A stretch of DNA of 62,599 nucleotides, counting the filler, from Hausera hauseri (taxonomy: Eukaryota), in NCBI GenBank assembly GCA_046269625.1. It is 13 parts of 13 records of this genome, joined end to end, with 100 filler letters (N's around TTAATTAATTAA, not from the genome) between each part and the next. Parts side by side here need not be neighbours in the genome. Positions count along the whole stretch, not along the records: positions 48,480 to 52,926 come from JBJURY010577005.1; 12 more parts are not named here. One strand, given 5' to 3'. Numbering within the stretch: the first letter of the stretch is position 1; the number at the start of each line of letters is the position of its first letter. The notes under the pieces are model-generated. The model was not told where the DNA came from. It worked only from the letters and a program-made list of their open reading frames with translations, and ran no database searches. The position numbers were made by a program, and so were the translations under genes. Below, one piece after another: positions 9,077 to 62,599 of the stretch.

Positions 9077-9082
9077 ATCTAT

Positions 9083-9990: not shown

Positions 9991-10261
9991 NNNNNNNNNN
10001 NNNNNNNNNNNNNNNNNNNNNNNNNNNNNNNNNNTTAATTAATTAANNNNNNNNNNNNNNNNNNNNNNNNNNNNNNNNNNNNNNNNNNNNTATTATAATC
10101 ATTCAATCCATACCTGCTGCGGACTTTCATTTGGAGAAACGTATAGGATTCAATACGCAACAGGAAAAAGCGACCAGAGCTACAGAACATATTTCTCATA
10201 TCCCGGTACTACACATTATTTCCATCGACCATACTTTCTTATTTCATTCTATACTAAGGTC

Positions 10262-12715
10262 ATGAAGAATGGACCTTGTGTAACCGCGGAGCCAGATATC
10301 GTAATTACAGAGTATACGAAATTCAAGTATATAATATTTGATGGAAATAATAGTACACACTGTGAACCAAGCTATCAAAACCCTTATAAATGCTGTCCTA
10401 TCGTTTTTGATAAACTGTACACTATATATTATTGGACCACGTATAACGGCTATACATGGTCAAAAACAGCAGATGGTCCAGAGATAATAGTCAGATCTCC
10501 GGTAAAGGTAACTTCCACTTCGATAAAGAGAACAACTACCTCGGTAACACAATCAAGCATACCAACTAAATTACAAAAAACAGTAACTACTCCAATGATG
10601 GAATCCCAAAAGGATATTAAAGAATTGGATATAATTATCCAACCAACAAGTCATTCATTAGTTATTACAGTGCCCGACCTGAAGAATACAAACATGAAAT
10701 TTGAGTGTCATCTCAACCACAGAGTGATTAGTGAAGGAGTTTTAACTCCTGAGGAACCGACATCTGCCTGTATGTTTTTGAGAGCCGATACAAATTATAA
10801 AGTCGTCATAACAGAACTAGATGACGAAGGAGAAAAGTTACGAACAGTTTTCCGTACAGAAAAGACTTTAAAACAGATAATAACTACTCCTAGAATAATA
10901 CTAAAAACAACTACACAAAAACCAGAACAAACCTCGAATAAATATTTTTGGATAATCAGTTTATTATGTGTCTTTTTAATATTACTAGCTATACTTTTAC
11001 CTTTAGTAATTTGCTGTTCGACAATAAGACGACGACAAAGAAGAATAAGGGAAATGTTAGATCAATTAAGAATTTTAAGGGAAGACTCCCAGGTATCGTT
11101 ACAAGATATAAGCGCGCCCTTTTTAGAAAATCAACGGCAAGTTGAAAGACTTACCGATCAAGAGCGGCAAACCCGACCGTTGAAAGACACAACCGTATGT
11201 CTCTGTATACAAATCCAGGATCAGGCCGCAAAATTCCTAGCGACCTATATAAAAAACAGACAATCAAAATGTGATAATATTCCTTTTTCTAAAACCGCTT
11301 GGCTAATATTAATATCTTTATTTTTAGTCCAAGAAGGTGCTGAAAGAACCGAAAGACCCAACTCATTTTACAATCACATCCTATCTAATTTATGGGCTAC
11401 CTCCAATAGAGACTACTGCTACTACGGAAAAGCCGCCTTCATTCCCAACAACCTTAAAGGTTATTCAGTCCAGCAAAGAAGTAGCCTCATAATTAAAGTC
11501 CGACAGAGCTCAACTAATCTCTCTGACTTAATTGATACTTCCGGACGCACTTATGCCATATATATCTCCGTGGCCAAAGGAATTATTCAGCTCAAAAGCA
11601 AGTCGCATTCGAATGGAATTACAGACGTAATGGAGATCTTAACCCGTGTAACAGTTCGCTTGGACCCTCGATTGTACGCTAATGCTACGATCACCCTACG
11701 GACATGTCAAGAAATATTTCCAATAATTTACCTCGAGGTCATAAAGAAAGATTTAATACCACGTGTGGACTACCAGATCCCTAAATACATTACTCCCAAA
11801 CCGAAAGAAATTGATGTAGAACAAGGATTATCATTTGCGAGAAAGTCAATAACATCAAAAGAAGAAATGTTAATCATGGCCGTAAATTCTATATACCTAT
11901 TCACCCCTATCAGAAATACTGAAATGACCACGGTAGAAGTAACCTTGATGAATCTAGATGGCGGAATCGTTTTGGATGAAATTTTATGCCCTAGAGAAAA
12001 GATCGATAATTATAACAGCCACGTAACCGGACTGAAAGAAGATCATATTATTGGAAAAAAGGACTCGTACCACGAGGAACCCTTCATAAGGAAAATGATC
12101 GTCGGAAAAGTAATCATAGGCATTGATGTTTATCACATCCTTGCAACTACCTTCAGATATGATTACAATAATCTATTGGGAATTAGAGAATTGTTATACC
12201 ATGACAGTATCAATCCCCAAAGAGTATATACGGCCAAACAGATTCTTACCCAGTACAATGGTAACATATACCCTCAAAGAACAAGAGAGAAAGCGGCAAC
12301 AATATTAAAAATTTACAATTCTATTCCGGAGTACAAAAATGAACAATTCCAAGTCCCGATGGATATACAAGAATCTCCAGATACCCAATCAATTGCCACC
12401 TGCTCGACATCCACCCAATTTGCCGGTGATCAAGCATCGACTTTTATAAAAGACTGTTATATTAATCTAAACCCAATAACGGCAGCCAGTTCTACAGAAT
12501 CAATCGTCGTTGACCTAACCAAAGCTCCGAAAAAGAAAAAGAAAGTCCCGAAGACGGAGACAATCACCTTGAAGAAACAAATAAAAAAGAAAGGAAGACT
12601 ACTCCATATCAAGTCTGTCGATTATCAGGATTCTAATGGCGTTATTGAAGCCTATCCTCTGATGCTGCGGACAGCATCATCTAAGGAGGGAAATGTCCAA
12701 GCAGACCGGAAATGA
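10262..12715 (+). CDS. Retroelement 3' ORF (5'-incomplete): Cys/Thr-rich ectodomain with FN3-like stretch, TM helix, cytoplasmic region with REX4/ISG20-like exonuclease fold
   Basis: 817-aa open frame. TM YFWIISLLCVFLILLAILLPLVICC at about 10943-11017. VEVTLMNLDGGIVLDEILCPREKIDNYNSHVTGL...GKVIIGID at about 11861-12320 matches the DEDDh scaffold. The ORF ends across a PPT/TGT junction. Confidence 0.7.
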   Translation: MKNGPCVTAEPDIVITEYTKFKYIIFDGNNSTHCEPSYQNPYKCCPIVFDKLYTIYYWTTYNGYTWSKTADGPEIIVRSPVKVTSTSIKRTTTSVTQSSIPTKLQKTVTTPMMESQKDIKELDIIIQPTSHSLVITVPDLKNTNMKFECHLNHRVISEGVLTPEEPTSACMFLRADTNYKVVITELDDEGEKLRTVFRTEKTLKQIITTPRIILKTTTQKPEQTSNKYFWIISLLCVFLILLAILLPLVICCSTIRRRQRRIREMLDQLRILREDSQVSLQDISAPFLENQRQVERLTDQERQTRPLKDTTVCLCIQIQDQAAKFLATYIKNRQSKCDNIPFSKTAWLILISLFLVQEGAERTERPNSFYNHILSNLWATSNRDYCYYGKAAFIPNNLKGYSVQQRSSLIIKVRQSSTNLSDLIDTSGRTYAIYISVAKGIIQLKSKSHSNGITDVMEILTRVTVRLDPRLYANATITLRTCQEIFPIIYLEVIKKDLIPRVDYQIPKYITPKPKEIDVEQGLSFARKSITSKEEMLIMAVNSIYLFTPIRNTEMTTVEVTLMNLDGGIVLDEILCPREKIDNYNSHVTGLKEDHIIGKKDSYHEEPFIRKMIVGKVIIGIDVYHILATTFRYDYNNLLGIRELLYHDSINPQRVYTAKQILTQYNGNIYPQRTREKAATILKIYNSIPEYKNEQFQVPMDIQESPDTQSIATCSTSTQFAGDQASTFIKDCYINLNPITAASSTESIVVDLTKAPKKKKKVPKTETITLKKQIKKKGRLLHIKSVDYQDSNGVIEAYPLMLRTASSKEGNVQADRK

Positions 12716-14464
12716 ATCCGAGACTAAAAGAGAATTACAAAGCAAATAAAAGAAACAATTACCTAAATTTGATTTTTGACCCAAATGAATTGCAAAATAA
12801 ATAAAAACAAGTATCTCAGAACTTGATCTTTCATTTCCCCTGTAATCATAAAAATGATTTTTGTTTTTTTTTAAATTGTGCTAAATGATTTTTATTTATT
12901 ATGTAAACTTCCTCCGTTGAATAATGACTATATATACCGATGTGAATTGCATTGTAAAAACAACATTCTTTGACACGAATCCTTTGACCGATCCATTATG
13001 AGTATTGTCTATGATAATTGTGAGTATGTCATTTTATTACTTTGTTATCTATTTTGATTGTCATTCTTAAAGATTATAGTATTTATCCTTATTAAAAATT
13101 TCTTATTTTGATTGTTTTTATTTCGTTGATTTATATTAGTAGTTTAAATAAAATACCGTATATCAATAGTTAAAATTCTGATAAAATTACAAGCACCCTT
13201 TTGGTATACCTTCCTTTAATACAGGTCGGTTGTTAAAATTACTATAAATAAAGGGGAGTGACGTCGGTATACCTCCCGATCGAACTCACACACTAAGGGC
13301 AAGTAAATAAACCTGATTCTTTAACCTCGGCAGACCCATAGGCTGCCGAATACCTTGATTAATTAATTACAACTTGGGACAAGGAGAGGGCCCAAGTTGA
13401 GAAAAGATAGTATAAGTTTGAGGTCTTGAGACCAACTAACTCTTACACCTTTTAAACTTATCAAAATGAATTATTGCAAGTCAATTATCCATCAGATTTC
13501 TAAAATATTCAAGCCCATGAAATGCAACTTCGTCCGCATTGAAAGGTTAACCTTCGGATTCAAATCAGTCGAAGATTTTAATAAGGCAATATCTACTTAT
13601 TCGGAAACTGACAAACGAGCTTCATTCTAAACCACATTTGAGACCATTCCTCAACAAGATGTTGTTATTTGGGAAACTTTCAAATAATTTTGGGCTTAGT
13701 TTTTGTTACCTTCTTTGTACATTAATTTGAAATAAACCACTACAAATAAAGCATTAGGCAGTGCAGAACAATTACGCTGCGCCTACTTAGCTAAAAATAA
13801 TTAAATAATAAAATTGAATAATTCTTTCTTGTTTCGAGTATACATTTGTTATAAAAGGCCGAAAATCATAAGTGAATGTGCAAATTGTAAATAGAATCGA
13901 AGGTGAAATCAAATATCAAAATATTACTAGAAACTAAAAAAGAAAAATTATTATTAATTTTGGATGATTAATGGGCTTATGCCTACAATTTGAAATAATT
14001 GTATCTCCGAAAAATTGTTTACCAATACGCCCACAATTGTGAATAATTGGGCAGAAACCGAAAGAAATTGTTCGAAAATTATTTGTTAACCATTCGCCCC
14101 CAATTTTGCATACAACCATTTTAATATATAAGGCGGCTCAGAATTAGTTGAAAGAACGAGATTTTAAGTCTGAAAATTTCATTGATTGAGCCATCAGAGA
14201 AGCTCAAGGAGCTTTGAAAACTTGAATAGTGTTGATTTTGGACTCGCAACGCTCACAGTGAGCAATCAAATAAATCCAGTTTGGAAGTTGACGCATCCGA
14301 AAACTCGAAGCAATTATTTATTCTTTGACGACTGTATTTTAAAATCGTCTTTATAGTTGTTTGTTGCGCCCTTAGAGGGACTTGAGTAACATTCAGGATT
14401 AAAATGGAGAGTAAAATTTATAGTTAAGTCGAGACTTATTGAACATTTGCACAGGATTTTCACG
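12683..14464 (+). repeat. Polypurine tract (12683-12693) followed by TGT: putative 3' LTR start and long non-coding region
   Basis: AAGGAGGGAAA|TGTCCAAG at the end of the long ORF; LTR 3' boundary not determinable. Confidence 0.5.
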
Positions 14465-31354: not shown

Positions 31355-31585
31355 CTGTTAATAGCACTGATCACCCTCCACATTTATGCGAGAGACGCAA
31401 TACATGGAATATTGCTTGCATTTCTAAATTTAAACAAATTAACATTTAAAATAGATTAAAATTATAAATAAACTAAATTAAAATANNNNNNNNNNNNNNN
31501 NNNNNNNNNNNNNNNNNNNNNNNNNNNNNTTAATTAATTAANNNNNNNNNNNNNNNNNNNNNNNNNNNNNNNNNNNNNNNNNNNN

Positions 31586-34500
31586 TATGAATAAATGGTT
31601 AGAATATATCAAGATTTTGACATAGAATTTAGATACAGACCTGGTAAGGATAATATGGAGGAAGATGCATTATCAAGGACGTATGATATAATTTCATTGA
31701 TAAATGAGGAAGAACATCTTTTTAATAAAATGCTGAAACAATATCGTGAAACAAATACGAATAATATAGCCAAAAAAGCAAATAGAAGACCAACAAACCA
31801 GCTATATTATCAATTATGTTAAGACTAGAAAGTTTCCACCTCATGAAAAATTGGCCAAATATCTCAAACGAGAAGGTGAGAAATTCATATTAGATGAGAA
31901 TGTGTTAAAATACAATAAAGATGGACAACTTTTAGTAGTCATACCAAAATGACTAAGAAACACCATACTCTGCCAAGAACACGACTGAAATCTAGCAGGT
32001 CATCCATCTTCACGAAAAACCAAAAACGAATAAACCAGAAATATTACTAGCCGACAATCGAACAGAATGTTAATGATTGGGTAGACGAATGCAAAATGTG
32101 TGCAACAATTAAAAATAAAGGAACACGATATAAACCAGAATTGAAATCACTACCAGAAGTAAGTAGTCCAATGGAACTATGTGCCATGGACTTTTCCGGA
32201 CCTTTCCCAACAACTCTAAGAAGGAATAAGTATATTTTATTATGTACAGATTATCTGACTAGCTACACTATCGTAATCTCGACAAAGGACTTGTTAGATG
32301 TCACAGTTGCAAAGAAATTTATTAGCAAAATTGTTTGCCAATTTAGTGCCCCACGCTATCTATTGACAGAGAGCACAAAATTTCCCAAGTAAATTATTGA
32401 GAGAAATAACGGATATATGTCAGACTAATAGATTATTAACAACAGCATACCATCCACAATGCAACGGTAAAGTAGAAAGATTAAACTATACTGTTCAGTG
32501 TATACTATCAGCTATGATAGACAAAACACAAAAAGATTGGGACATTCACTTAAAAGTTGTACAGTTCGCAATAGCGACTACACTACAATTCCATCAGGAT
32601 ATACGCGATTTGAATTAATGTATGGTAGGAAACCACTACTGCCAATGGACATCCAGCTATTACCAGAAAAGGAAATACCTGAAGATTAGTCTGATGAAGA
32701 TATACACAAAAACGTTGTAAATAGTTTAGAAAATTGTTGGAAAAAGCTAAGCAATCTATCAAGCAATACATACAAGACTATCAAGAGTACTATAATAAAA
32801 AAGCTAAACCCCATAAATTTCAACCAGGAGATAAAGTCATGATACATTATCCAGTAGCAAAACCAGGAAAATCACTAAAACTAACGCGCACAGGCAAAGG
32901 ACCTTACCTAGTAGCTAAGGTCATACCTGAAAATATATTTATTGAAAAACGCACTGGTAAAAAGACCAGAATCGAATGCGTATCAGCCCAACTAGTCACA
33001 AAGGACCAAAGGATCCAAAAGCTAAAGAAGAACCTCGGTATTCATTATAATCATCTAAACAACCAGCATGTAGTCTGGAACAATTATTTCTCTTAATCAT
33101 GATTTTTGGTCTAATACTATCATCTACGGCACAAACTTTGGTGACAAATCCTATAACCACAAATTTAGAATTACGAGTAAAATTAGAATTAGTAAATGAA
33201 TTATTCATAGGAGAATCAAAATTCATGGAAATCACTCAATTAATTTTATAACCAGAAGTAAACGACGCAATTTGGTTGTCAACTAAACGTTGTTCAACCC
33301 AACTTTTAAATGAAATCTGTTTTTATTGATCTTCATTTTTAACAACCGAAATGTTATTGAAACCAAAGCAGCAGGTCCTACCTACAGCAAGACAAGTATA
33401 TGTAGAAAAAATGGGCACTACCTTTTTCTTTACCTAGGAAAAAAATTATGAACCAAAACTAATAGATAAGGTTATAGTCAAAAGATCCGCGTTAACAAAT
33501 GATGTCGACTTGCAGACAACATTATTTCACGAGAATATTTAAACATAAGTCTGGTGAAAAGCCCTAAACTTCCATATCCATATGTCATTACTACAATTCT
33601 TCAAAATAAAACAAATAACAACACAAACCATAACAATGTTATCATCTATGAGTAATAAACCATTCACTGTCTCCAACCTGAATAAAATACCCGAATGTAT
33701 CATTATCGCGACAGACTTATGCATTGAGTTCAAAACCTTAGAGTTAGTAAATAATCCTATCTCCATGACCTGTGTAGGAAAATAGCATATTATATATGCC
33801 ATCATAAAACAGCATGAAAGGATGACCAGATGTAATGATCTCCAATCTGATGAGGAATACTTAATTGTTTTTACCCAAGACCAGGCATTAACTCGACATC
33901 AAACGGTTAGAACTCAGACAGGAACCAAAAGATATTTAATACCTGAAGAAATACCAGTCTACGCACAGACACGACTAGTAACTAACCCTAGCATTCAGAC
34001 AGATATGTTAAAAACTATAATACTATTCGTTGTAATAATACTCCTTCTACAGCTCATATCTGCACCATTTGTAGTCATAGAGATAGAGATGGTCCAAAAA
34101 GCGGACTATAATAAATAAAACCTTATTTCTCTAAACTGGATTAATATTCTCGGTAAATAGCAATACAGACAATGGTGTGGAGTGGATAGTCGACGTTGAT
34201 GGAGTTAAGAAAATTAAAAATCATCACATAACAACACACATGCAAACTTAACAAGTCATTAAAGCACACCTACAAATTAAAACTTACACACACCAATGTG
34301 TGAATACTCAAAAAGACCAATCAAAAATAACCAACGAAAACCTTGCAAGGTAACCACCTACCTTGCCAACAAGCATTTAAATACGACCCGCCATCATTAT
34401 ATTTCTTTTTTAAGTCAAATGAATTCTCTCAATACTCCAATATATAAAAATTTTAATCCGGACTTAGATGAATCAAGTAGTGAATCAGCATCAAATAGTT

Positions 34501-35574
34501 CAATTGAAACAGTAGTCCATAACCCTAAAAGAAGGGTTATACTAACTCCAAAACAATGTACAGATACATTCACATTCCAAAATCCAACTCAGGGATTTGG
34601 ACTAACGAGAGGAATCTTGAGTACTCCAGCAACATTTAAGAAAATGAAAACAACGAAGCCTCTAATAGAAATAAGAAAGAAAGCAATCAATATTGACGAT
34701 TTACCAGAAAATAAGAAATTAAAACTTCAATCTCAGATATTGGAAAATCTACAAAATAGCGAAAAATATCGATTGAAAAATAGATCTTGGCAGGAATTAT
34801 ATGGCAAATTCATCCTAATCTTTTATATTACGATTATCTGTATCCATCAAAATTTTATGCTCAATTGATCAAACAAACAGAAAATTCGACGGATATCTTG
34901 TATACCGATAGTAAATATATTGATATTGACTTAAAAAGTTCAACGATTAATGATAGGATGTTCCGAATCTTAAAAATAGAGGAGGCACGTTATAATATCA
35001 ATTTAATAGAGTTACTACACCTACAGCCACCTTTCGAAAAGGTCTTAATTCATTTAGCTCGTGGAGTAATACGATCTCGAGCACAATCTGATTGTTATGA
35101 AGCTCTTCACCCTCAAAATTCCATTTTGGAACCTAAGACGTCAATAAGGGTCAAATATTCCGCATTCCAAACGGAAATCTATTTCAATATATTACTACCT
35201 CCGGTAGTTATTGGAATAGAAATTTGCCAGTATATAGATGAAAACGTCGGTCTAGAAGAAACAATATTCTACAAAATACCGGGAAAAGGAGTCTGTAATT
35301 ATCAGCTAACAGAAGCTTGTAATTATAGATATCTGGCCGTCTCTTTGGCATATGCCTCGAATGGAGATCCATTACGGGTAGAAGTGATCATTGCAGGAGA
35401 AGACAAATTAATTATTTATCAAGCATATATAAATCCGAGAAGAAAAATATCAAATACAAATGAACATATACATGGATTACCTCTTTCAATAATACAGCAA
35501 GCTGAAGATGAAGAAGATGGACGAATTAAACTAATTAAATATTAGTGCTAACACCAGTACAATCATCAAAGCAC
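31586..35574 (+). mobile_element. Gypsy RNaseH end, integrase, signal/TM protein and exonuclease-fold domain (decayed)
   Basis: FDIEFRYRPGKDN..DALSR; AMDFSGPFP; TTAYHPQCNGKVER; GPY; hydrophobic LFLLIMIFGLILSSTA near 33085; TM IILFVVIILLLQLI near 34020; VEVII...IIYQAYINP..ISN.NEHIHGL at 35380-35480. Confidence 0.8.
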
Positions 35575-35674: not shown

Positions 35675-38600
35675 ACAAATAATCTTCCTTACTACGGCTT
35701 CTGCCAGAGTTTCGGCCTTCTGGTCCATTAATGCTATAAGCTTGACAAAATGAGTTAATCGATTTACACATGCTAGAATATACTTATTATTTTTGTGAGT
35801 TGTAGGTAACAGTCTTACAATATTCATTGACATTGTTTGCATTGGTCTGTCCGGCACGTTTAGCGGCTTAAGTTGGGCGATGTAGCTCTTTACTTTTCTA
35901 TGTTTGGTTGCGCATACCTCGCAACCATTCGCCTAATTCTTTACGTCGATGTAAAGACTCGGCCAATAATACTTATTTAATATTCTCTCCAGTGTATTCT
36001 TCCATGACATGTGTCCGGCTCAGTAAGAGTCGTGTTCGGCCATTATTAATTCTTTACATAGTCTTTTTGGTATGACTACTAATTTTTGTCCTTTCCGTTT
36101 ATAATACAATACGTTTCCGCGGTTGGTGTCTCCTGTTGCGCAGTATTTATGAACAATCCTTTGCAAATGCTTTCGTAGTTGGTGACCCTTTGGCGTCATA
36201 TTGTTTCCAACAAATTCGATGATTTGTTGTATAATTTTGTCCTTATTTTTTCGGTAAAAATTTTAATTGCTTTAGCCATTGTTAGAATCCGCTGTCTATC
36301 CTCTAATTCCTCGAACTGAGCTTTTCCCATTACAGTAATCGCGCTTGTTTTGGTTTTGAGCTTTGATAACGCATCAGCATCGACATGTTTGCTTCCGGGT
36401 TTGTACTGAAATTCAATATTATATCGTGAGATCTCTTCGATCCATTTGTTGAGTCTACATGTCGGATTATTTGTTATGCCTTTTAAGATTGTAACCACTT
36501 TATGATCCGTAACAATTATAATCTTCTGTCCGTAGATGTATACGTTAAAATGTCGAAGAGCATCTTTTACATCTAACGTTTCTAATTCCGTAACAGAATA
36601 ATTCTTTTCAGCTTTCTTTAGTGATCGTCCTCCGTATGCGATCAGATGTTCTAATTCTCCATATTCTCGTTTTTGAGCTAACTCGTATCCAATGCCTTCT
36701 TTGCTTGCATCCGTTTTAATTATGAACGGTAGGTTAAAATCGGGGTATCTTAAAAAGGTTTCGCTAGTTAAGATTTTCTTTACTTCGTCGAAAGCCTTTT
36801 GTTCAACATCAGTCCATTTCGATTTAATCCCCTTTTTAAGTAAGCGATACAAGGGTGCATTGATTTTTGAATTGTCCGGTACAAAAGTGATGTATATATA
36901 TATCCGCACAAGCCTAACCAATGTCTTAACTCTTTCGAATTTTGAGGTTCCATACAATCTGATATCTTTTTTCAACAGTGATTTATCCGGTTTTGATCCT
37001 TCTTCTCCAACTATATGTTCGAGATAAGACACAGCGTTTTGAGCTTATTTACATTTCTTGAGATTCATTTTCAATCCGGCTTGTTCTATCCGCATGAGCA
37101 TGTCCTCAATGGCCTTTAGATGTTCTTCTTCCGTTTTGGACGCAACCATTACGTCGTCTAGATATGCGAACGCGTGTTCTAGTCCCATTAATACCTTATT
37201 CGTCATTCGGGTAAAAGTAGCTGGTCCCGTAGTTATTCCGAAGTGCATGACGTTGAATTCTTACACACCGTCGTGCATTTTGAACGCAGTTTTATAGGGG
37301 TCTTCTTCCTCTATATGCACTTGCCAATATCCAGATTGTAGATCATGTGTGGTGAACCATTTTGCTCTGGAAAGCCTATCTAGGGCCTTTTTTCCCAATG
37401 GTAGTGGAAATGAATCTTTAATCATAAGTGTGTTTAACGCTAGATAATCGATACAAAATCGGTGCTTCGTAGTACCTTTCTTCATAACCATGAGTATATG
37501 GGTGTACCACGATCGGTACCTCGGTCTAATAATGTCGGCCTTTAACATTCGTTCTACTTCTTTTGTTATCTCCGGTATTAAAGAGGATGGATGATGATAC
37601 CATTTCGGCATCTTTTGATCTTCTAAATCTATGTCCGCATTGGAACCAGGCTTTTTCTTCAGCGGAATTGTTAGCCTCAAGGCTTTGGCTCTGCCAGTGT
37701 ACTCTTCGTTTTTAGCAATAACTGAGCTATAATGGCAAAGTAATTCGTAAATTCGGCAGTATGACTCGGGCGAAAATTTAGTTTCTATGTGAGGTGGAAA
37801 TTTGGCACATTTGTAAGGTTTTTCTTCAATTATTATTGCTGACACTCTATAAGTGTTCCCCAAAATTGTGCTAGCATATAATCTAATCGGAATTGGTGCG
37901 TTTTAGCTATTCTAATGGTCACACGGCCCGTCGATACTCTTGTTAATACGTTATTGAGCAAAATGCTTGGATTCAACTATTCTCTTGGTTCGAAATACAC
38001 TGGTTGATCATCATCTTGACGTATCTGAGCATATATTAGTACTTCGGTTCTGGGTGGATTGTTTTTGTCTCTTGGGATCCAAACCTCTCCAAATTGCCTA
38101 TCTTTAGTGGTTTTGACTCCTTTTATCGGACCGAGTTCTATCAACTTCCCTGCATTGAAATTTATAGCTAAGTTAGGTAATTGTCTTAATAGATAGCATC
38201 CTAATACTACGTCATCCGTTAACTGCTCCATTACTGAAAATTCGTGATGAAAAGATTATCCCATTATTCGTATTATTTGTCTCCATCGGAATTTACTTTT
38301 CGACGACTGTCCGTAAGCTTCGACACTTCCTTGGTATGTTGCTGGAGGTGGGTAAAATTGCTTCCGTAAGAGCTGCGGTATTGAATCATACTTTATCAGG
38401 GATATCTCGGATGCTGTATCTATCAATCCGTAGACCTCCCAATCTTCCAACTGAATTTTTGAAAAAGGCCTACCTTCGATTATAGTACTATAGTAATTTG
38501 GTGCTATCTTTGAATGTCGTATAACTGACACCTTGTAGCCGTTGATGGTAACTTCAGTGGTTCTAACCGGCTGATCGATTAGTTGTCTTAACTCTCCAAT

Positions 38601-39826
38601 TGAGTATAGTTTATTATTCGTGTCATTTACATTTCCCGTTTCTTGACTTCTGACTGGTGGCTGTATTTCTTGGTTTTGACAATTCTGCACTTCATGATTT
38701 CTTGAGAATGTTGATCGCATTTCGTTTGGTCTGGGTACTCTAGATGAATAAATTATGCCGTGGTCGTCGACTGCTGAGCAACGATATGGGGCAGTCATCC
38801 GTTTCGTTTAGTGAATCTTATGTAATATGCCATAGTGCTTTGTTGCTTCATAAGGATCCTCAAGGTTGAACGGTTTTCGATAGATATCTGTTTGATATGA
38901 GTTCGCAGATTGTTTCTCACAGTCTTCGTATATGGGTGCATTTGGCGGTAATATTGGTAATGGTAGTTTTATAACAGAGTGGCTTTTGTGTCTATGTGTC
39001 CTTGAGACGGCGTCTCCTCCCTTAGGCTCGTCATCGTCGGAGATATTCCTCCGTGTTTTGGCATTTATGAATTTATGTTTGTAATTAAAGATGTGTCTCC
39101 ATTTTCATTTTCGATTATAATAGCCAACATGCAGTTCCACATCTGTTTTTCATCTACTTTCTTCATAAGCTTTTAAAAATTTGCCGAAAGGTGTGATGAT
39201 AGCCGTTAAAATTTTGCATGAGAATCTAGTCAGGGTGAATATCTCGTATCCGTTTTTAATCGCTTAAATTATAGCTTTAACTAGCTGAATTAAGAAATAG
39301 ATTGCTAAGAATCCTGATGCGGCTTGTACGAATATCAGAAATCGTCCCCAAATTTTATACAATATTTCTGTCGTTACTTTTTGATAGTAGTTTTCGCCAA
39401 GTAATGATTCTCGCTTTGCTTGGTAACGCGAGTCCTCCAGTATTGTTTGAATCGCTTGGTTTAATTCATGTGTGCGCTGGCAAGGGAAAGAGAGAAATTG
39501 TCTAAATGCCTCTACTTCTTTCAGTCCACAAGTACCTTTTGCGGCAATATCTTGAAACTTATCGTCGGTTATTCCCTTTATCAAATTTCTTCCCGTCAGT
39601 TTGGCGGGCGGTGCGATTACGCCACCGTTCGGTAAACTTACCCAATATGTTTCGCTTCGTTGAAACATTGGTTCGCCAAGACTGGTCTTGCAGTCTCTCA
39701 GAATTGTCGGCTGAGTAGAATTTGCCAACAATAATCTAGTAATTGATGTTACTAATTTTGGTACGTCTTGATATATCACTGGAAGCTGTTGTATAAACCT
39801 CTTCTGTTCCACATTAATGGGTGCAT
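35675..39826 (-). mobile_element. Large Gypsy family copy: glycoprotein C-half - PR - RT - RNaseH - IN
   Basis: Glycoprotein 39826-39150 matches 15740-16400; GLIDTASEIS; RFCIDY..LN; DLQSGYWQV; MHFGITTGPATF; AYLDDV; IKTDASKEGIG; NYSVTELE; ADALS; integrase zinc finger and core. Confidence 0.92.
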
Positions 39827-40022
39827 TGTAGTGCCACGGTCCAAGACATGGTCCTCCATTTCTGACAATAGACTCACCGTTTTGGCGCAGCTAGGCCGCA
39901 ACGATATTTTGTCCCGCTTCGTTACCGTTTGGTCTATATTTTATTTAGCAGACGAACAGCACACAGTAGTATCAAATAAAATCAACATTCGTACTTGGTT
40001 ACTTACCAGACTACTAATTATT
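39827..40022 (+). repeat. Possible diverged third structured terminus (starts TGTAGTGCC) inserted in the glycoprotein gene
   Basis: Glycoprotein homology stops exactly at TGTAGTGCC; shares CCATTT and CCGCTTCG with 3590-3763, but overall similarity is low. Confidence 0.35.
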
Positions 40023-43340: not shown

Positions 43341-45816
43341 ACCATGTGTATCATTTTTCTTATATATATTGTAACTCAATAAGTTACATGTTTTACTATA
43401 TTATGGGAACCATTATACTCCCTAAACAACGAATATTCCATAAATATTCTATGTTTCATTTCAATAATTTATTTGCTATTTTTTGGCATTAACAAACGTC
43501 TGATGATAGCCTACATTTATTTGATCTGTACTCTTCAGTCGTACTATTTACTTTGTTTATGCTCTTCTTCACTAGATTTCTAACAACAAACATTTGTCAC
43601 AAACACCTTTTGATAAATTACACGTTTAAACTGGTCAAACAAGTAGGCTGAGCAACCTGTAAATTAAATAGAAAGGATCATTTTCATTTGCGGACATAGA
43701 ACAATGATCAAAGACTTTATCAACAAAATGCTGCCATGAAGTGAGCGCTTTGTCTAGTTTTTGCTGATAAAAAATTAAAAAAGCATTTGCCATAACGTGA
43801 CACAGCAACAATGTAAGGCACAGAACATGTTCTTTTTGAAATATTCTTGAGCACTAATGCTTTTTGACTTGTTTGAGGAGGAGGATGCGCTCTAGTTTTC
43901 AGAACGATGAGAGATTTGTGAGGCTTGAACAGCTGGAATAGATGGTGCAGCTGATTTGCTCTCCTGTTTATCAGCTGAGGACAAGCCTTGCTCTTATTGC
44001 CTGCTGATGGTAGGAAGGGCTCCTCTCAGCATGCATCAGATGTGATTCATTAAGTACCGTCCTTCAAGTTTTGAGAAATAAAAATCATCTGATGCAAGAA
44101 GAGGAGCACAAGTGACCCATGAAACTCAAGCATGACACATGTATGGGTTGTATCAGGCCTACNNNNNNNNNNNNNNNNNNNNNNNNNNNNNNNNNNNNNN
44201 NNNNNNTTAATTAATTAANNNNNNNNNNNNNNNNNNNNNNNNNNNNNNNNNNNNNNNNNNNNTGCAAACAAGTCTGTTTCTGCGAATTCCAAAAATTTTA
44301 AAATTCTAATTAATTGTGTTTGAAGACGATGAAGGCGAACTGGAAGGACAAAATGAGGGAAATTTCTTGGAGATGGTCCAATCGTGAGAGAATATATGTC
44401 ACCAGAAATATAAAACGAGTTCATTGTATCGTTAGGAGATAGAGATAGAAATAAAATTATATATCAAGTGAAACAAGCCCAATATTTTTCGATTATCTTC
44501 GACAGCACACTTGACATTTGAAGAATGGATCAAACTTCTCAAGTTTTACGTTATGTTGTCATGGACATTGACAAAGTACAAGTTCAGGCGTCCTTCATCA
44601 ACTTCATTGACACCAAGGATAAGCACACCACTGAAATAGCTGAAATGATTTTGGAAAAGCTACGTTCGGACGGTTTAGACGTAATGAACTGCAGAGGTCA
44701 AGGCTATGACAATGCTTCAGTCATGAAGGGTCAACACTCCGACGTTCAAAATCACATTCTTGAAGTCAACCCCAAAGCGCAGTTCATCGCCTGCTCTAAT
44801 TATTTACTGAATTTGGTTGGTATTCGAGCTGCCAAAGCGGAGGTTAATTCCGTGACATTTTTTGGTACACTGGACTGTTTATACACTTTTTTCTCAGATT
44901 CAACACACCGATGGTAGTCCTTATAAAAGCAACCGGAATTGGCCCGAAGCTCTTGGTTGATACTCGTTGGAGCACCAGAGGACAAACCGTTAAGATAGTC
45001 AAGAATCAATTTTCAAAAATTAAAGATACCCTGGAGACGCTGATAGGCACTGGCAAAAATCCTATGACTAAATCTGAAGCAGTGGGATTATTATTAGCTA
45101 TACAGTCCTTCACGTTTCTCATCTATCTTGGGTTTTGGGCACCGGTTTTAATCGAAGTGAACTATGCACAAACTTACCTTCAAAAACAAGAATTGTCTAT
45201 TCGAGACTGTGCACTTAAGCTGAAAGCTTTAATGACGCTCTTAACTAGCAGCCGGGGTGACATCACTGAAGGCACTATAACATTTGCCGAAAGCATGTGC
45301 TCAGAGTTGGGGATTAGTACAAAACCCGAAAGACGCCTTCGACGCAAGAAGATGATGCCTGGCGAAATATGCGTAGATACTGGATTAGCGTACAAGAACG
45401 AACTAAGTAGGAGCATTTATTCTTCCTTGGAGCGGTTTGTTCAGGTGATAACAACTAGATTTGAGCAGCTTTATGATGTGGCAGATAAATACGATTTTTG
45501 TCGCCTTCGCAACTTTTGGACCCAGAGATTCAGATAAATCTTGACTATGCTCCTTACGACATTAACAAGGACGAATTTTGACTGGAGAGAAAGCGGATTC
45601 AACGGTTTGTCGGAGTTTCGGAAGAAGCCTCTGACCTTTCGAAGCAAGGACCTGTCGAACTCTTAAGTTTCATCAGAAAGTATCGACTGAATGATTCAGT
45701 GCCAAACATCATAATCTTAATTCGCATCTTTCTGACAACTTCAGTAAGTGTAGCAACATGTGAGCGAAGTTTTTCGACGCTCAAATTGATAAAAAGCTAT
45801 TTGCGATCAACGATGA

Positions 45817-48479: not shown

Positions 48480-51400
48480 CTTTTGTTTTTGTCAAACCCT
48501 TGATTGACGGGTTTCATTTTTATTGTACTGATTCAATGTACATAATTGTACCCACGGCCGGCTGACGGAACGGAATGGTTGAATGATGACCTGACATATA
48601 AACTCCATTAGCAAATACATTGTAGAGTCACAAATAAAAGGAAATTGAATTTGAAAAATAAAATTGCAGGCATAGGGAAACAATAATAAATCATGTTTGA
48701 CAGGAAATTGAATTCCAAAAACACAAATTCAATTTTAGAAAATAGGAAATGAGTATCAGAAAAACAGAATTAAAATCAGGAAACCGAATTTGGTAAATTG
48801 AAAAACACCGATAAAATTTGCTATAAAAAGAGAAGCAAATACAAAACCACACACAATTTTTTCTACGACAAAATTTTGATCTAAGAGTTAAAAAGATAAT
48901 TTTGAAACCTTTGGTAGGTTAATTGTTGATCCAGACTAGAAATTAATCTGAATTTAAATAGCTATCCATCTAAGTTCAGTGTCTACGATTATTCAAAGAA
49001 AAGAAGCAATTCCAACTGATATCCTTACATCGAGATTCCCGACTGAATTATAATCTATTTATCTATTTTGCACTTCAATAAAATAAAGAAATGGCCCAAA
49101 GACAAGCATCCGACTCTACGAATTCATTACATGATAATGGTAAATATTTAATTGTTTCGTATCCGTTAGCCGATTGTTTAAATAATTTTGTATGATTTGA
49201 TTTCAATAAATATTTTGTATCTAAAATTGACGGTAAATTGTATTTTTACATATTGGTTGCGAATATGTCTTACTCGTTTAAAAGAATGGGAGTCTAACGA
49301 ACAAAAGACTCAAACATATCCTAAAAAAGTAGAAAGTATCCAGCTGAATGACATTTGCTCAGTGAATTACTTGGCTGACTTAAAGCCGATGCAAACAATT
49401 AATTCAATGGTACATCACACTCTACCGTGCTACGATGTGGTGGTTACAGCAGAATTGTCCTGATTGGCAAGACTCACAGTACACAGTAACCGATGAGTCG
49501 GGCGTTTTTCCCTTGAGGATATGCTCTAAAGGAAAGTATCGATTGAGTAACAACAATTAGCGTCAGCCAGTGTGTACGATAAGCAAGAATGCAGCCTGCT
49601 CCTCCGGACATGTATCGGGATACAGTTTATTGTGTGAGAGTACAAAAGCCTGCTGGTTACTAATAAATTATGAATTATTTAAAGAAAGAAACCTGATCGT
49701 TTTAATTACGATTTAATTCAATGTAGTGTATAAATTCATTGTAAATAATTTATCATTTTTAAATTATTATGAATGTCCATTTTGATACCACCAGTTTATA
49801 GTATGTATGCGTTTGACTTTAATTCCGTTGTAGATAATTGTCATTTAGATGTAGTTATAATAATATTTTATGAATAATCTACCATCTCTCTAAATTGTCC
49901 GGAAGGCTTATTTGGACACAATACGTCCACATTATGTATTTACATGGGTATATCTAGCTCTGATTCTATCGTAAACAACCCATTGTTTTATACATAAAAT
50001 TCGAATAAATATGGGGATAAATAATGTGGTTTAGTATAAATAGGAGTTATTAAACTACAATAAGTTACGATATAATATTAAGTTTATCTGAAGATACGTC
50101 AAATTGCTCGGTTGCATTTATTGAAATATTTGATTTCAAAATTCTTAATTGGTGTAGAATATAATTACATTGATTTATAGCTTGGAATATATGTAGAAGG
50201 TATCCATAAAATTATGGATATAAAACATTATGTCGCGCGAAATATCGCATAAAAATAAAATCCATTAGGATCATTTATTAAGATATCTTATTTACTCTCA
50301 CACGCATTCAGGGTATTTTACATGCTAACATAGAAAATCCGATTTTACAGATGATAGCTCGATTTATTGTTTTAAATATTGTTGTTTAAAATTTAAAAGA
50401 ATTTTATATTTTTAATTAATTTCGCATCAAAGGTTCTATCTTAAATTTTCATTATTATGTATAAAATTTCGCGGATGTTTTAGTGAATGCACACCGAGAA
50501 ATGAGAAATATAAATGTTCAGTTATTAAAGTTAGAGGTGGTTGAAACATTTAAATATCTTTTAATTGACTTGGTAGGATTGTACCTGTATAAATTCCACC
50601 TATATATAGATCATAAACGTATGATAAGGTCAATGGAATAAGTATCAATCATAGAGTCTGATTTTGTGTGACGAATTCATCGAGAGAAATTCTAGTGAAC
50701 AGTAAGATAGATCCCGAATCGTGGATATATAGAAGATTTAGAATGGAAAGTCGTAAATGAGTTAATGGTGGTCTCAATCATACTATATCATAATTATGAA
50801 TGCCCAAATGGGGATTATCCAACCTAGCATTGTGATTGTTTGAACGACTAATTTTAAAAGACAAAGTTATACGAACGAGATTACTAGAATACGGTAATAC
50901 ATTGGGATTACATAATTGTTCAAATGAATAAACCACAAACATGCTATGATCATCAGACCATCGTTTTATTCTATGAACATTAAATATATTTAAACGGAAC
51001 TAAATCACTTGCCACGACGAACTATGATGTGATGGAGATAGACAATACCATTTCTATGCTTACGGGTTTAAAGTAGTCGATATAAGAAGACAACATCGAA
51101 GAAATCAGAGATGAATTAAGAAGGATTAATAGGGCAACTTAAAGTAACCAGCCATATTTCTAAATATGATTTCCAGAAATAGTTACGAGTACAATAATAG
51201 TTCAATGACTTATAATACCATGAATATTGAAATAATTGATTTTATTGAAGAATAACGTAGATTATTAAAGTAGCTACAAGTTGGAATAATATAATAGATA
51301 AAACCCTACAGTTATGTTACGATTCATATAACTATTTTATCCCGGGTTTGATGAAAATTATCGTATGAAACGTACAGATAATGGATAACGCTGAAGATTC

Positions 51401-52926
51401 AAATAATCCTTCTTTGGGTATTAACTGATTAAGTGGATGATCGAAATCATAACCGAAGTATTGAATAGTTAGAAAATAAGAAGGATCAGAGGCAAAACTA
51501 TAGAGGAGGACTCACAAACCGAATAACATTCAGACTATTTATATGTTGGAGTACTATTAAGGTTGTGTACTTACATGGTATATAACCCCTACTTCTAACA
51601 AAGTAAACATTATGAACACCTGAGTTCTTTATAACACATTGGGTATTATTGATGCCTGGATGAAGTAAACAGTCGTATTGCCGTTTATTAGGATCTTTTT
51701 TAGTATCTTCCCAGGGTATTAATTGTATACCTATCAAGTACTCCGGGGGTAATTGTCTGGATATAGTCCAGATCATGCTTTTCTGGCCTTGACTTGAATA
51801 TGTCATATGATACTGCAAACTTTTAATAAGCATATCTTCTGTTATTGCTATTGCGTGTCTTACTTTTGCTTGTTCATTTTCTTGGTTAGTCATTTGTCCT
51901 ATCACTCCGGGGAATAATAGGATGATGAACAATGGTAGGATCTTCTTTATCTGCAGTTTATTTACTGGCCTTATCTGGTTTACTTCCTCCTCAATGCTTC
52001 GTACAAACTCTTTTTCATCTTTTCTTAGTTCGCTGTCCTTGGCAGCGGGCTTATATCTATTAACGTGGACCTTCAAGGAGGTGTTATTTTTCTTCAAACA
52101 AATATTCGGTAAATCCATTTTGTCCACTTCATAGGGTCCTTTAAATGGCCTATCTAATTTAGAGGTTTTACCTATTTTAATTGATGGTGAGTATAACATT
52201 ACTTGGTCCCCTATATTAATTTTTGGCTGTTTGGTCTTTTTGTCATAATACTTTTTATATTTCAATTTATAATCTTTTTGACTGGTTCCAATGGTTTTAT
52301 ACGCTAACTGTAAGCGTTTTTGCATTAATTGTTTATAGTCTTCTATCTCCATCAAGTGTGATACTGGCTTCACATTAAAATCCAAGTCGATGGGTAATCT
52401 CGAATCTCTGAAGTACATTAAGTAAAAAGGGGTTTCTTTAGTAGCTTCATGGACCGAAGCCCGATCTACAAAAACACATGCATTAATATATTCATCCCAA
52501 TCGTCTTGCCTAGTATTTACTACCGTTTGTAGTTTCCCTTTTAAATCTCCGATATATCTCTCAACCATCCCATTATTTTATGGGTGTCCAGGCGTGGATC
52601 TCAGTTTCAGTATCTTCAAAATGTTATATATAGATTGCATTACCGTTCCCGTCAGATTTGATGCTTGGTCCGTTAAGAGGATTCTTGGAGCTCCATAATT
52701 AAATACTATGTTTTCCACGAATTTCTCGGCTACTGTATCAGCCTTCATATCAGCCATTGGCAGGGCGACGACCCATCGAGTGAAATAGTCAATGAAAACG
52801 AGGATATATCTATTTCCATTTCGTGTTAGCGGCAATGGTTCGGTTATGTCCATTGCGGTAAACTCAAATGGTGCTGGGGGTTATCCCATACTTTAAGCGA
52901 TGCTTTGTATTTTAACCCCGTGAGAT
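48480..52926 (-). mobile_element. Gypsy integrase read through into a signal peptide and ectodomain; heavily decayed downstream ORF
   Basis: AMDITEPLP; LTDQASNL; STPGHP..GMVER; GPY; then in frame KKILPLFIILLFPGVIG|Q and a Cys-containing ectodomain (ORF 51498-52568). Confidence 0.8.
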
Positions 52927-57353: not shown

Positions 57354-59180
57354 GGAATTCTTCCGCCACCAATTACAGATCAAAAAATAGAAATTATGAG
57401 CAGAACTCAGCTTATTCCAGAAATCAGACGTAAAGGATTCAGTATAGAAAATCTTCCAAAAGAAAAAAGAATGAAGTTACAAAAGGAAATAGAACAAAAT
57501 TTCCAAGACAGCGAAACTCATCGGTTACAAAATAGATCATGGACTGATCTATTCGAAATTAATGGAATAAATATATTCGATCCAAAACGGAATCTTTATC
57601 CATCAAAATTCTACACGAGCCTAAGAGATAATGAACAATTCCAATGACTTACTCTATCCGGAGTGTAGACACCTCGATAATGCCTTAAAAACTCATTATC
57701 AGTAACCGTTCATTCAGAATAATACGAATCGATAAACCTCTGTATAATGCAAGCTTAACGAATCTTTTTCAAATAGAGGACACAACCAACAAAGTGTTAC
57801 TCCATTTGGCCGCAGGAAAAATTCAGTTACGAGCAGAATCAGATAATTATCAAGCGTTGCCAGGAAAGACAACAATATTATCGGCGAAAAATTCTATCAG
57901 AATTAAATCAAATACATTTCAAACCCAACTCTACTTTGGAATTTTACTCGCTCCTGCTATAATTGGGATAGAATCATGCTGCAAAATGGACAATTATGTG
58001 GGTCTTAAACCAGCCATATTCTATCAGCTTACGCCTAAAGATATCTGTAATTATAGGCTAACCACAGCCATTAATTATAGGTATCTTGCATGCTCTTTAG
58101 CGTACGCATCCAACGGTGATTGTCTGCCTATTGAGGTGATAGTAGCATACGAAAAGCAACTAATAATATATCAGTCATATTAATTCAAGAAGGATAGCAA
58201 ATTCTGGAGAACACATTCATGGATTCAACATACCAATAAATCAACAAGCGCCAGACGAAGAGGACGTCAGAAAAGAATTAGTCTCTTATCTTTTTGGGTA
58301 TATTGTGGTTAGTGCTAACACAAGCACTATTATTCAGGCATTGCGAATTCCTAAAGAATTCTTGTTTGGAACATTAGATCTTCTTGCCGCAAAAAATACA
58401 AAAAGAAGGTTCCAAGAGCAAGGATTAAAACTAAATCTTACCCAAATGCCATTAGTCTATGGTCTGAACCAAGAATTTCCAAAGACGGCTGAAGAGATCA
58501 TTCCCGTACTAATACAAGTACATAACAAGTTAGAATTAGATTGTACAAACGAAAAATGGGAATATGATTGGAAACCACCCATGAACAATCTAATCAGTTA
58601 TGAAGATTTTCCAAAACTATCCAAACATCATAATGAAAATTACAAATACGAAGTAATACATCAACAAAAACTTTCAGTCACTGATCAGCTAAAGGAGAAG
58701 GCCATCAATATGTTAAAAACCAGATCTTCCATACCATTCACAGAACTTTTTATTTTACTATACGGACAGATTGCTCAGTGTGTCAATGTTCGATATGAAA
58801 ATGAACCAACTTCAACAATCAATACAACGTTTAATACTTCCAGATGCAAATTACGGAAACATTGTAGGAATTGTGTACAAAAATCAGGTACACAATACCC
58901 TATATTTGGCACTCATCGGAGCGAATTTAAAACGTATCAAAATGTTAAATCATCAACCGATACTTATACAGCAGCCGATACCAATTCAGTTGGACCTAAT
59001 TCCACTCCCCAAACCAAGAGGAGGACGACCGTTAATGCTAAAAAATACGACCAAGGTAAAATTAAGGATGATACTATATGCTAAACAAGACATATACATC
59101 CTCGAGAACTTGTATCGGAAGAAAACAGCAGAGAAGATACCAGAAAATACAGAAACAGAAACAACTATCCAAATTTAAAA
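57354..59180 (+). mobile_element. Retroelement 3' ORF remnant with exonuclease-fold domain
   Basis: Homologous to 34600-35574 (LQNRSW, LYPSKFY, CNY.LT.A.NYRYLA.SLAYASNGD, EHIHG, SANTSTII). Confidence 0.8.
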
Positions 59181-59239
59181 ACTGTGCTTTTGGACTATAT
59201 GAATTTGGTTTTTCCTTACATTTCAATTATTTAACATTT

Positions 59240-62200
59240 CAGTATTTTACATGAAAATCCGGTTAGTGTAAATATTTCGTATCCATTTATTACTGCTTGG
59301 ACGACTGCCTTAATCATTTGTATCAGAAAATATATCGCTAAAAATTCTGATGCGCCTTGTTCAAAAATTAAAAATCTTCCCCAAATTTTGTAGAGTATTT
59401 CTATTGTTACTCTCTGATAGTGGTTTACGCCAAGTAACGATTACCATTTAGCCTGATATCGTGTATCATCTATTACGGACGCCATAGCTCGATTTAGCTC
59501 GTGTTTTCTTTGTCGTGGAAAGGCAAGGAATTGTCTGAAAGCCTCAATTTTCTTCGGCTTGTATATACCTTTTGACGAGATGTCTTGAAATTTATCGTCT
59601 GTCATTCCCTATGCGAGATTCGTCCCTGTCAGCTTGTTAGGAGCGGCAGTGATACCTTCATTAGGTAAACTAACCCAGTCTGTCTCGCTACGTCTAAATA
59701 TGGGTTCTCCCAAGCTTGCTTTGCAATCCTTAAGAATGGTTTGTTGTGTTGCGTTATCCAACAGCACTGTCGTCAATGGTGTAGCTAATCTTGGAGTATT
59801 CTGATAAATAACAGGAAGTTCTAGGATGCAACGTTTTTCTTCTACGTTGATGGGTACTTCTCTCTTTTCACATTCATAGGTTAGCAATACTTCGCCCGTA
59901 ACTCGACCGAAGATTCCTTCTCTCATGGGAATTATTGGAAAAGCTAATTCTGGGTTTGCATATATAAGAGCCATTTTAGTTCTCATAATTTCGGTATCCA
60001 ATTTACAATCATTCATTATCATTTTATGATATAATTCCGTTATTCCGACTAGTCCTTTATAGTAGAAGTAATCGTCTCTATTTTTCAGGTGGTCCTCAAT
60101 CCGAACATCCTGCGTTACCAATTTGTAGGTTTTTGCGTTTATTTCTGCTTCGGCTACGAAGAACGCTTCATAGTTTGTGGCCAACATTACTACATCGCAA
60201 CGAGTCATCATCGCTTTTTTAAAAATTTTAGTCCATGCGGATCTGAGATTAATATAGTAGGTGTAGGGTGTTCTGATACATCTTCGCGTGTCCTTGAGTT
60301 AGCTTCTGATTTATCCATATATCGTTTTCCGGTAGTTTCATTAAACTTTAGCTCCTTAATTTTGATGAAATTACAAATTCTTCCAGAGGGAGGCTCCCAT
60401 ATTATAACCAAACTTCTAAAAACATGTTCCGTCTTGTAAATGACATTTTTGATTCTCAGTGTATAACTTAGTGACGCTATGGAACATTACCTTCTGTGAT
60501 CGCATTTTTGATTCGTAGAAATCCACAACTACTACGTTTGGTTCTAATCCTTTTCCGGTATCGTATTCTGCTCCATTACAATGTCCGGTGTGCATATCCA
60601 GCCTTCCAGCCACTACTTTATATGCTCTAAATATCTTTCCTGGTTGCATCTCTAATTGCATACTGTCCCATTGTACCATTCTATTCTCTTTGGCTTGTTT
60701 GCAGTGCTAACGTTCTAAATTCATTGGAATTAACGAAGTAGTTGGCTTAATTATGGAGGAATGTCCGTGTATTAGGCCGCAGTGGAAGATACTACGTGAT
60801 CGTCTCAGCATGCACTCCATTCCGTCTAACGATATCAATTCTTGTTGTTGATATAGAAAGTGACTTTTCTCTCTCGTTTCCCGTTTGTGAGGTCTGGCAT
60901 CCTCGCATACTTCCAGATCCATTAAGGAATATCTCTGACCTAATTTAAACTTATCGCAATCATAGACGGTTACTGCGCTTATATGCTTTATTAGCATCAT
61001 TAGGGTAAGCAAGCTAATTAGCCAGTTCGATTCATTTTTCCGACCTCCAACGTCTGATGTTGTCAGACTACGCAACATATCGTCGAATTTATTATTGTTT
61101 CGTTTGTCTTCTTCCTTGTCAAATAGTCTTGCCCAATTTACTTCGCAAGGCACTCTTTTTGCTCCTCTCCGTACCAAGCTTATAGCCCGATTGATTTCAC
61201 TCTCTCGATTAGGATTTATTTTGATAGCTAAGTATAACAATACTTTTCTCAATTCTTCATTCGTGTTTTCCACCATGATATTTTCGATTACCGATTCATC
61301 AGTTAAGTTGCTTTTCGATAGTTTAAAACGCGAGCTTCGCATCATTTTGGCTGCATCGAAAATTATCTTTTCTTTATCAACCAACACATCTCGGAAACTA
61401 GAATAATTCACAATTCGTATTAAATTTTTCATTAACTCGCTTAATTCTTCATTATCTGTGCTAAGAGTTGGGATCGACATCTGTCTCAATTCTCTAATTA
61501 GCTCTCCATTGTAATCTACCTCTTCTCGCACTTTTCTGGGTTTGCCTACTGGGCGTTTCGGTCTTGGACCTTTAGTGGTTGCTTCGCTTAGTGGTACTAA
61601 ATTTATGTCGTATTGTTCTTTATCTTCGTCCGTTTGCAAATATTCAAAATATAGCGCAGCGTCTCAGACTCCCATAATTCGTCCTACGCATTGTTCTGTT
61701 TTGGCTTTACGTGTGGCTTCTTCTTTTGTCTGTTCATTAGCTATTACTACCACCATCCGATTTGTTTCGTCAGGAATAATCCCAACTTCTATTAATTGTC
61801 CTAATTCATCTAGTATTCTACCTCTAAAATAAAATCTGTAATTTAACTCGTTTGTTCCACCATTGTTTACTAGCCATTCTCTTACATCCTTTATGCAGGA
61901 ATATGTAGTCAACTCGCATTCTTTTTCGTCCATCCACTCGGATGACACCATTACTCTTATCGCCACTTCGGGTTTAGCCCTCAGGATTTTAGCGTACTTC
62001 CTTATCAAAAGTTTCAGCACCGTACTATAGATCGTGTTTTCGCTAGATAATTTAAAGTTGGAATACGTTGTCTTAATTTATTCTCAGTAATATTTACATT
62101 AATTAATTCAATCAAATCCCTTTCAGTTAGCGCTGAATCTAGTAGCATCTCCACGTTGAACCTCCTGTCCTGCGGACATGCTTCTATTTCGTTTAGTTGT

Positions 62201-62599
62201 ACCGGAGTCGTGGCTTTCCCGACAAGTATCTCATCGAAGTATGCATCCCATTCGGGTTCGTTTCCGACATCTGGAAGTCGGTAGTCCACCAAAGCCGTAT
62301 TGGCTATATGAATGTTTTCCTGAATTTCCTTTCATATGGGTTGTATTTGTTTCATTTGTGTAGTTCGGAAACCTACTCCATTTCCGCAGGCGTATTGAAT
62401 CATCTTCAATAATTCACCGAATTTGTTAGAGTCGATCAGTCCTTTTTAGTGATAATCTGTTAATTCAAGAATCACATCCTTTTGCCATCTTTGTACAAAT
62501 TCTCGTTTATTCTTAATCTCAAATTCGGTAAAAGCATATCTATTTCGATAAACTCCAAGCTCTTTTGTTATTTCTTCTAACCTTGTCTCTCTTTGTTTT
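59240..62599 (-). mobile_element. Large Gypsy family copy: ORF1 (UBL) and chuvirus-like glycoprotein
   Basis: Near-collinear with 15780-19200; ORF 60707-61639 runs uninterrupted from ORF1 through the signal peptide into VTVYDC. Confidence 0.88.

Follow-up and report, generated by a model that had tools for sequence, protein, structure and literature searches.

In the AT-rich eukaryote Hausera hauseri, a defunct Ty3/Gypsy copy carries an integrase whose reading frame stays open through a predicted signal peptide and a predicted ectodomain. The copy lies on one of the 13 contigs (4–7 kb each), joined by N-spacers, that make up the DNA analysed here (62,599 nt in all, hereafter the window), a stretch with many transposon remnants. 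A membrane-protein architecture after the integrase is well supported in two relatives recovered from metagenomes, the loci L001 and L004. On balance, it is probable that the H. hauseri copy belongs to the lineage of these two loci, in which a gB-class fusogen precedes pol and the integrase is followed by a second type-I membrane protein that would serve as an attachment protein.

The contig that holds this copy spans window positions 48480–52926 and has the following features:

52040..52925 (-): core and GPY/F domain of a Ty3/Gypsy integrase, truncated where the contig ends (rve match; 45–46% identity to L001/L004)
51948..52039 (-): charged linker, open frame free of Met (reading-frame analysis)
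51897..51947 (-): predicted internal signal peptide, in the register of the second signal of L001 (hydropathy and alignment)
51498..51896 (-): predicted ectodomain of 132 aa with 3 Cys, possibly FN3-like, terminated by the stop at 51500–51498
51248..51304 (-): candidate TM, uncertain, in a neighbouring frame (Kyte-Doolittle 2.76; 16/300 shuffles as high)

The minus-strand stop-to-stop frame 52577–51498 encodes 359 aa and runs from the integrase into the ectodomain uninterrupted, as a first-pass annotation of this DNA had reported in describing a frame open past the integrase GPY motif into a Cys-containing domain. Upstream, the integrase core is interrupted by three stops (52895, 52883 and 52580, minus strand), and the frame read with X at these positions matches Pfam rve (E 3e-12); with its GPY motif at 52139 (-), it is a DDE integrase with a GPY/F module, as in Ty3/Gypsy elements (Metaviridae). 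The signal-like stretch KKILPLFIILLFPGVIG (51947–51897, minus strand) is followed by 132 residues that include the 3 Cys and one N-glycosylation sequon. Because Met is absent between residue 154 of the frame and this stretch, the signal is most simply read as internal. No in-frame TM follows the ectodomain, the frame ending at 51498. Of the PR-RT-RH-IN order (protease, RT, RNase H, integrase), the contig holds the integrase alone, inside which it ends; G is not seen on it, and no LTR pair, PBS or PPT was identified for it. The 9 proteins matched by the ORF are ordinary Gypsy/chromovirus polyproteins, with a signal after the integrase in 0/9, and a PDB sequence search with the same ORF returned nothing significant. 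Two other candidates on this contig were discarded: an antisense gene at 50480–51500, where plus-strand stops number 27/40/28 against 30 expected and Pfam gives no match, and a semi-open 150-codon stretch downstream of the frame, which is within chance (60/200 shuffles). At the far end of the contig, a purine tract after an AT-rich stretch (49283–49297, plus strand) resembles a PPT that would belong to an unrelated element.

An open frame after an integrase could also arise by chance read-through or as an assembly chimera. The assembly is one of repeats and is fragmented, the integrase-ectodomain junction is spanned by none among the contig pieces of run X1 listed, and the hydrophobic core of the signal is modest, its hydrophobicity alone being reached by 163/5000 residue shuffles (p ~0.03). 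The depth of run X1 falls from thousands over the integrase to 60–160 over the ectodomain, a contig depth that is unable to rank the parts. Against an artefact, however, the chance of 132 open codons at the local composition is ~3–4e-5 and that of 170 codons ~2e-6, and the same layout recurs in three other elements (L001, L004 and a second window copy, on the contig that starts at 31586). Moreover, two positions of the ectodomain carry other letters in 10 and 16 contigs of run X1, and the ectodomain stretch therefore exists in several copies. Together these observations make an artefactual junction very improbable.

The two metagenome relatives came from a scan of metagenome contigs in which six aligned members of a cupin-exonuclease family (see below) served as the query. 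Its 175 candidate stretches yielded 4 loci, two of which (L002 and L003) are too short for context, so that the long loci number two. Both carry uninterrupted upstream frames, of 3012 aa in L001 and 3207 aa in L004, that are cut at the 5' end and encode, in order, a signal, a chuvirus-like (gB-class) G, a TM, proteases, RT, RNase H, integrase, a second signal, an ectodomain and a TM. The G matches Monjiviricetes_fusion at E 9e-84 in L001 and E 5e-94 in L004. Hydrophobic stretches in L001 lie at 517, 1087, 2614 and 2904 (signal, TM, signal, TM) and in L004 at 813, 1366, 1534, 2800 and 3110, plus a separate signal preceding G; the signal/TM pair after the integrase is 2614/2904 in L001 and 2800/3110 in L004, and weaker peaks (409 and 1120 in L001; 1242 and 2941 in L004) are left uninterpreted. 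Protease-like domains number three in L004 and two in L001, and L004 holds an extra signal-repeat-TM cassette between its proteases (L004:4090–4660). In both loci the polyprotein tails are short, and a cupin plus ISG20-like exonuclease is encoded by a separate ORF downstream of the polyprotein. Small coiled-coil-like ORFs with no significant Pfam match are neighbours of the nuclease gene, in L001 (9207–9875) ahead of it and in L004 (11571–12008) behind it. No Pfam or PDB match to Gag was obtained in the N-terminal regions searched (L001 and L004 are cut at the 5' end), and an LTR pair was not found in these 5'-open loci.

Since L001 and L004 were retrieved through the exonuclease and not through G or the integrase, their G-pol-signal layout independently confirms the earlier guess that the membrane cassette is linked to a chuvirus-like G: the two are parts of the same polyprotein in both intact relatives. 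G elements that end right after the integrase account for 0/2 of the long loci. The wider claim, of a type-I membrane cassette after the integrase, is borne out in frame in L001 and L004 and recurs in contig 31586, and fails for the frame under study in that its TM is missing.

Integrase comparisons place the H. hauseri copy beside these loci. One tblastn HSP (40%, E 6e-63) joins L001 2292–2634 to window 52874–51894 and ends at the signal end. The best window match of the L001/L004 integrases is the integrase under study (45–46% identity), compared with 34–36% for the copy on contig 31586 and 32–33% for a window family that bears G. In a 12-row integrase tree, the copy under study groups with L001 and L004 at 85/81, and adding the 31586 copy gives a group of four signal-bearing integrases at 72/87. 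For RT-RH, a tree of 10 rows unites the window G family with L001/L004 at 72/90. All branches joining window copies to L001/L004 have moderate support, none starred, in these trees of 10–12 rows. A single tree of the window integrases, as envisaged in the first-pass annotation, could take in the copy under study and the 31586 copy, and the G-family integrase was left out because its overlap is too short. Its portion at 36241–35675 is 34% identical to the integrase under study over only 58 columns, and the link between the finding and the G family is therefore drawn at the level of the lineage. A further Gypsy integrase end at window 21033–21788 has no signal after its GPY motif and falls outside the lineage in the tree.

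The remaining copies of this probable lineage in the window are as follows:

31788..32967 (+): second copy, frameshifted integrase with GPY at 32899 (homology to L001/L004, motif position)
33084..34070 (+): second copy, signal (33084–33131), ectodomain with stops, repeat (33693–33923) and TM from 34014
34844..35521 (+): second copy, cupin and start of ISG20-like domain, D-x-E lost (E 2e-13)
10091..12715 (+): third copy, an intact frame of 874 aa encoding ectodomain, TM, cupin and ISG20-like pseudo-nuclease
13250..13260 (+): polypurine tract (PPT proper 13250–13258) then TG, where the 3' LTR is predicted to begin
57354..59084 (+): fourth copy, a frameshifted cytoplasmic region with cupin and pseudo-nuclease (homology to the 31586 copy)
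35675..39890 (-): G-family copy, with G, protease, RT, RNase H and an integrase cut by the contig end
14566..19945 (-): G-family copy, with N-terminal region, signal, G and protease
59233..62599 (-): G-family copy broken off within the tail of G, tail to tail with the fourth copy

The layout first described for contig 31586 stands as to its integrase, signal and TM, the last followed by a long cytoplasmic region, and needs amending in that the signal is out of the integrase frame and the ectodomain has stops. ORF 10091–12715 had been described as an ectodomain, a TM and a cytoplasmic tail ending at a PPT. The ectodomain, with a family repeat at 10628–10867, and the TM (10946–11017) are upheld; the PPT lies ~535 nt past the stop rather than at the end of the tail, and the plain tail is actually a cupin plus ISG20-like domain (about 11342–12320), a module that had been missed. 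The cytoplasmic regions are homologous between contig 31586 and ORF 10091 (E 7e-8) and between contig 31586 and contig 57354 (E 4e-53). By frameshift-aware alignment, ORF 10091 shows no homology to the contig under study; neither ORF 10091 nor alignment A1 matched anything in word-indexed protein searches, and scans of viral_contigs found no relative.

The PR-RT-RH-IN order is present in L001, L004 and window contig 35675, and upstream of pol, L001, L004 and window contigs 14566 and 35675 carry a class III fusogen that has a signal and a TM. The N-terminal region of the G family, seen in three copies (9069–9990, 17700–19945 and 61100–62599) that are ~76–80% identical and have no Pfam match, is expected to hold Gag. 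The plus-strand cupin-pseudo-nuclease ORF of the fourth copy ends ~150 nt from the minus-strand G-family copy broken at ~59233, and this tail-to-tail pair (57354–62599) may be a rearrangement of one element or a chance adjacency. The window copies represent distinct families, probably of a single lineage, rather than pieces of one element.

Other contents of the window are of several kinds. A divergent tubulin fragment (2045–2611, minus strand; Pfam E 9e-14) lies immediately before a frame of 482 aa that weakly matches the gag-like DUF7041. Degraded DNA polymerase B-like regions, which we take to be Polinton-like, lie at 23689–27114 and 28160–31399 and are mutually related (E 5e-36), and degraded pieces of a hAT-like transposase were recognized by eye at 44522–45537. 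The contig at 53027–57253, with simple repeats and a zinc-finger-like fragment, is unlike the others and may derive from another organism.

L001 and L004 together contain five copies of a ~90-residue repeat. A profile built from these five units ranks contig 31586 first (E 9e-4) and ORF 10091 second (E 0.03) among all window frames; the two ranked units are membrane-proximal, and neither was included in the profile. The earlier statement that the three window ectodomains are not obviously alignable is accordingly correct for the ectodomain under study and incorrect for those of 10091 and 31586, which are homologous. The former reaches an hhalign probability of 0.1 against the family repeat and is not matched by the five-unit profile, and is either a very diverged repeat unit or a different captured domain. 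As to the identity of the repeat, a seven-unit profile searched against the PDB gave fibronectin or IGF1R in 14/22 matches (E 0.14–0.78), the top match being a kinase (E 0.025), and ORF 10091 matches Pfam Fn3_Dep-1_3rd at E 9e-4, below the cut-off. The ectodomain under study has no Pfam match, its ESM Atlas assignment (NDNF/fn3 at 0.77) is a lead only, and its single-sequence fold is uninformative (pLDDT 37); PDB sequence searches with one repeat unit and with A1 gave nothing significant. Although each of these indications is below significance or cut-off, their direction suggests that the family repeat is likely to be FN3.

These comparisons bear on whether the copy under study might represent a G-less sister family, or might have exchanged the repeat for a different captured host ectodomain, possibly with expression by way of a spliced message. 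Its ectodomain is unalignable to the family repeat, the nuclease module is absent downstream of its frame (the contig shows no cupin-exonuclease trace), and the window G-family integrase has just the short 34% match to its own. The closest integrases found, however, are those of the G-bearing L001 and L004, the signal keeps the L001 register, and no Met stands ahead of it, which together render such an origin improbable. It is likely that this exact copy belongs to a G-bearing element.

As for the cupin-exonuclease module, ORF 10091, searched against 1.84 billion representatives, gave 36 matches, all to residues ~420–810 and none to the ectodomain; Pfam RNase_T was scored by 20 of the 36. A model of the cytoplasmic region from the 36-row alignment (pLDDT 88.7) matched ISG20L2/ISG20 in Foldseek at E 3–5e-8 (ISG20L2 3e-8) and cupins at E ~1e-4, and the family profile matched ISG20L2 at E 6e-26, so that by both fold and profile the domain is a DEDDh exonuclease of ISG20/REX4-like type. 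Of its catalytic residues (D-x-E, D, H, D), the D-x-E is kept in 21 of the 32 aligned database rows (from the 36 matches) and all five sites in 18 of the 32. The D-x-E is lost in 3/3 window copies, and the window proteins are therefore predicted to be pseudo-nucleases. In the 10091 and 31586 copies the module lies on the cytoplasmic side of the TM, and in the intact 10091 copy it is an in-frame fusion. Two family members, P0010 and P0037, lack D-x-E and have a hydrophobic start (KD 2.29 and 2.83); they are possibly other TM-fused forms. An unnamed cupin-DEDDh protein family is thereby placed in these Gypsy elements, at no fewer than 2 loci.

How might such a polyprotein operate? Alternating signals and TMs would thread the chain through the ER, leaving G and the repeat ectodomain luminal and pol cytosolic, and signal peptidase together with the two or three protease domains of the element would release the parts. 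Both membrane proteins would enter particles, on which the repeated, fast-diverging, FN3-like ectodomain may bind a cell-surface partner, as gD, gH and gL do for herpes gB. The downstream cupin-DEDDh exonuclease has a gene of its own in L001/L004 and, in this genome, is fused behind the TM; this fusion and the loss of catalytic residues lead us to propose a membrane-tethered nucleic-acid binder. Tentatively, then, one polyprotein could give rise to two-glycoprotein particles, with a gB-class fusogen from before pol and a swappable FN3-type attachment protein from after the integrase; a cupin-ISG20-like RNA-handling protein would be a conserved accessory of the lineage, tethered to the membrane in some hosts.

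The same architecture could instead yield a second membrane protein that has no role in entry and remains on the host cell, where it would mimic a receptor, act as a decoy or block superinfection; the tethered pseudo-nuclease would then be its tail for signalling or RNA binding. FN3-like repeats, a TM and a cytoplasmic domain do recall a host receptor, the fusion behind the TM in ORF 10091 would suit a cell-resident protein, and L004 has two such cassettes. In-frame translation with G and pol, however, would fix its co-production with particle proteins, and L001/L004 have short tails and a separate nuclease gene; we consider this reading rather unlikely. With the architecture described here, a retrotransposon polyprotein is predicted to cross the membrane four to six times, much as some RNA-virus polyproteins cross it repeatedly. 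Annotation pipelines that stop at the integrase would overlook the whole arrangement.

Among known systems, separate fusion and attachment proteins are familiar from paramyxoviruses (F and HN), and polyproteins processed by signal peptidase from flaviviruses and alphaviruses. These serve as functional analogies, the former for how labour is divided and the latter for alternating signal/TM topology, and no homology is claimed.

The nearest relatives in design are the GAG-ENV-POL errantiviruses of Nematoda, Bryozoa and Platyhelminthes whose ENV is of HSV/gB type (Chary and Hayashi 2026, PMC13524379), which cites Sacco et al. 2022 for the nematode ones. Like L001 and L004, they have a gB-class fusogen ahead of a Ty3/Gypsy pol. 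For such gB-only elements the mechanism of entry is described as unknown because HSV needs gD, gH and gL as well (PMC13524379); a second surface protein that shares the frame of G and pol offers a testable candidate for this missing partner, which the two-glycoprotein reading, if true, would supply. The main text of that paper does not contain the words "fibronectin", "exonuclease" or "fused" and describes no membrane protein after the integrase, and its elements may carry a post-integrase cassette unnoticed.

Burro/GYPSM1, a giant planarian Gypsy element, likewise has Env in frame between gag and pol, a very large polyprotein and accessory domains (PMC6431247). Those domains are BIR, MATH, BCL2, ankyrin and dUTPase, however, and the portions of the paper drawn on here name no post-integrase signal-ectodomain-TM and no DEDDh gene. 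The Juno/Vesta LTR elements of rotifers likewise have an exonuclease gene or a TM gene behind pol (Rodriguez et al. 2017, PMC5408684); their exonuclease is RNase D-like (DEDDy) and, as far as the sections used here report, occupies separate ORFs, whereas the present one is an ISG20-like DEDDh domain joined to a cupin and fused to a TM in this genome. Capture of a chuvirus-like G by an LTR element has a precedent in Anakin (Dezordi et al. 2020, PMC7642597), which is a Bel-Pao element with one glycoprotein, while L001 and L004 are Gypsy elements with two. [quoted passage not shown]

Neither the post-integrase membrane cassette nor this nuclease is described in the literature searched, which lies outside Repbase, Sacco et al. 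2022 and the figures and most supplements of PMC13524379. Within that literature, Env between gag and pol is already published, in Burro (PMC6431247) and in the gB-type errantiviruses (PMC13524379), and what appears new is the second membrane protein after the integrase together with the cupin-ISG20-like nuclease.
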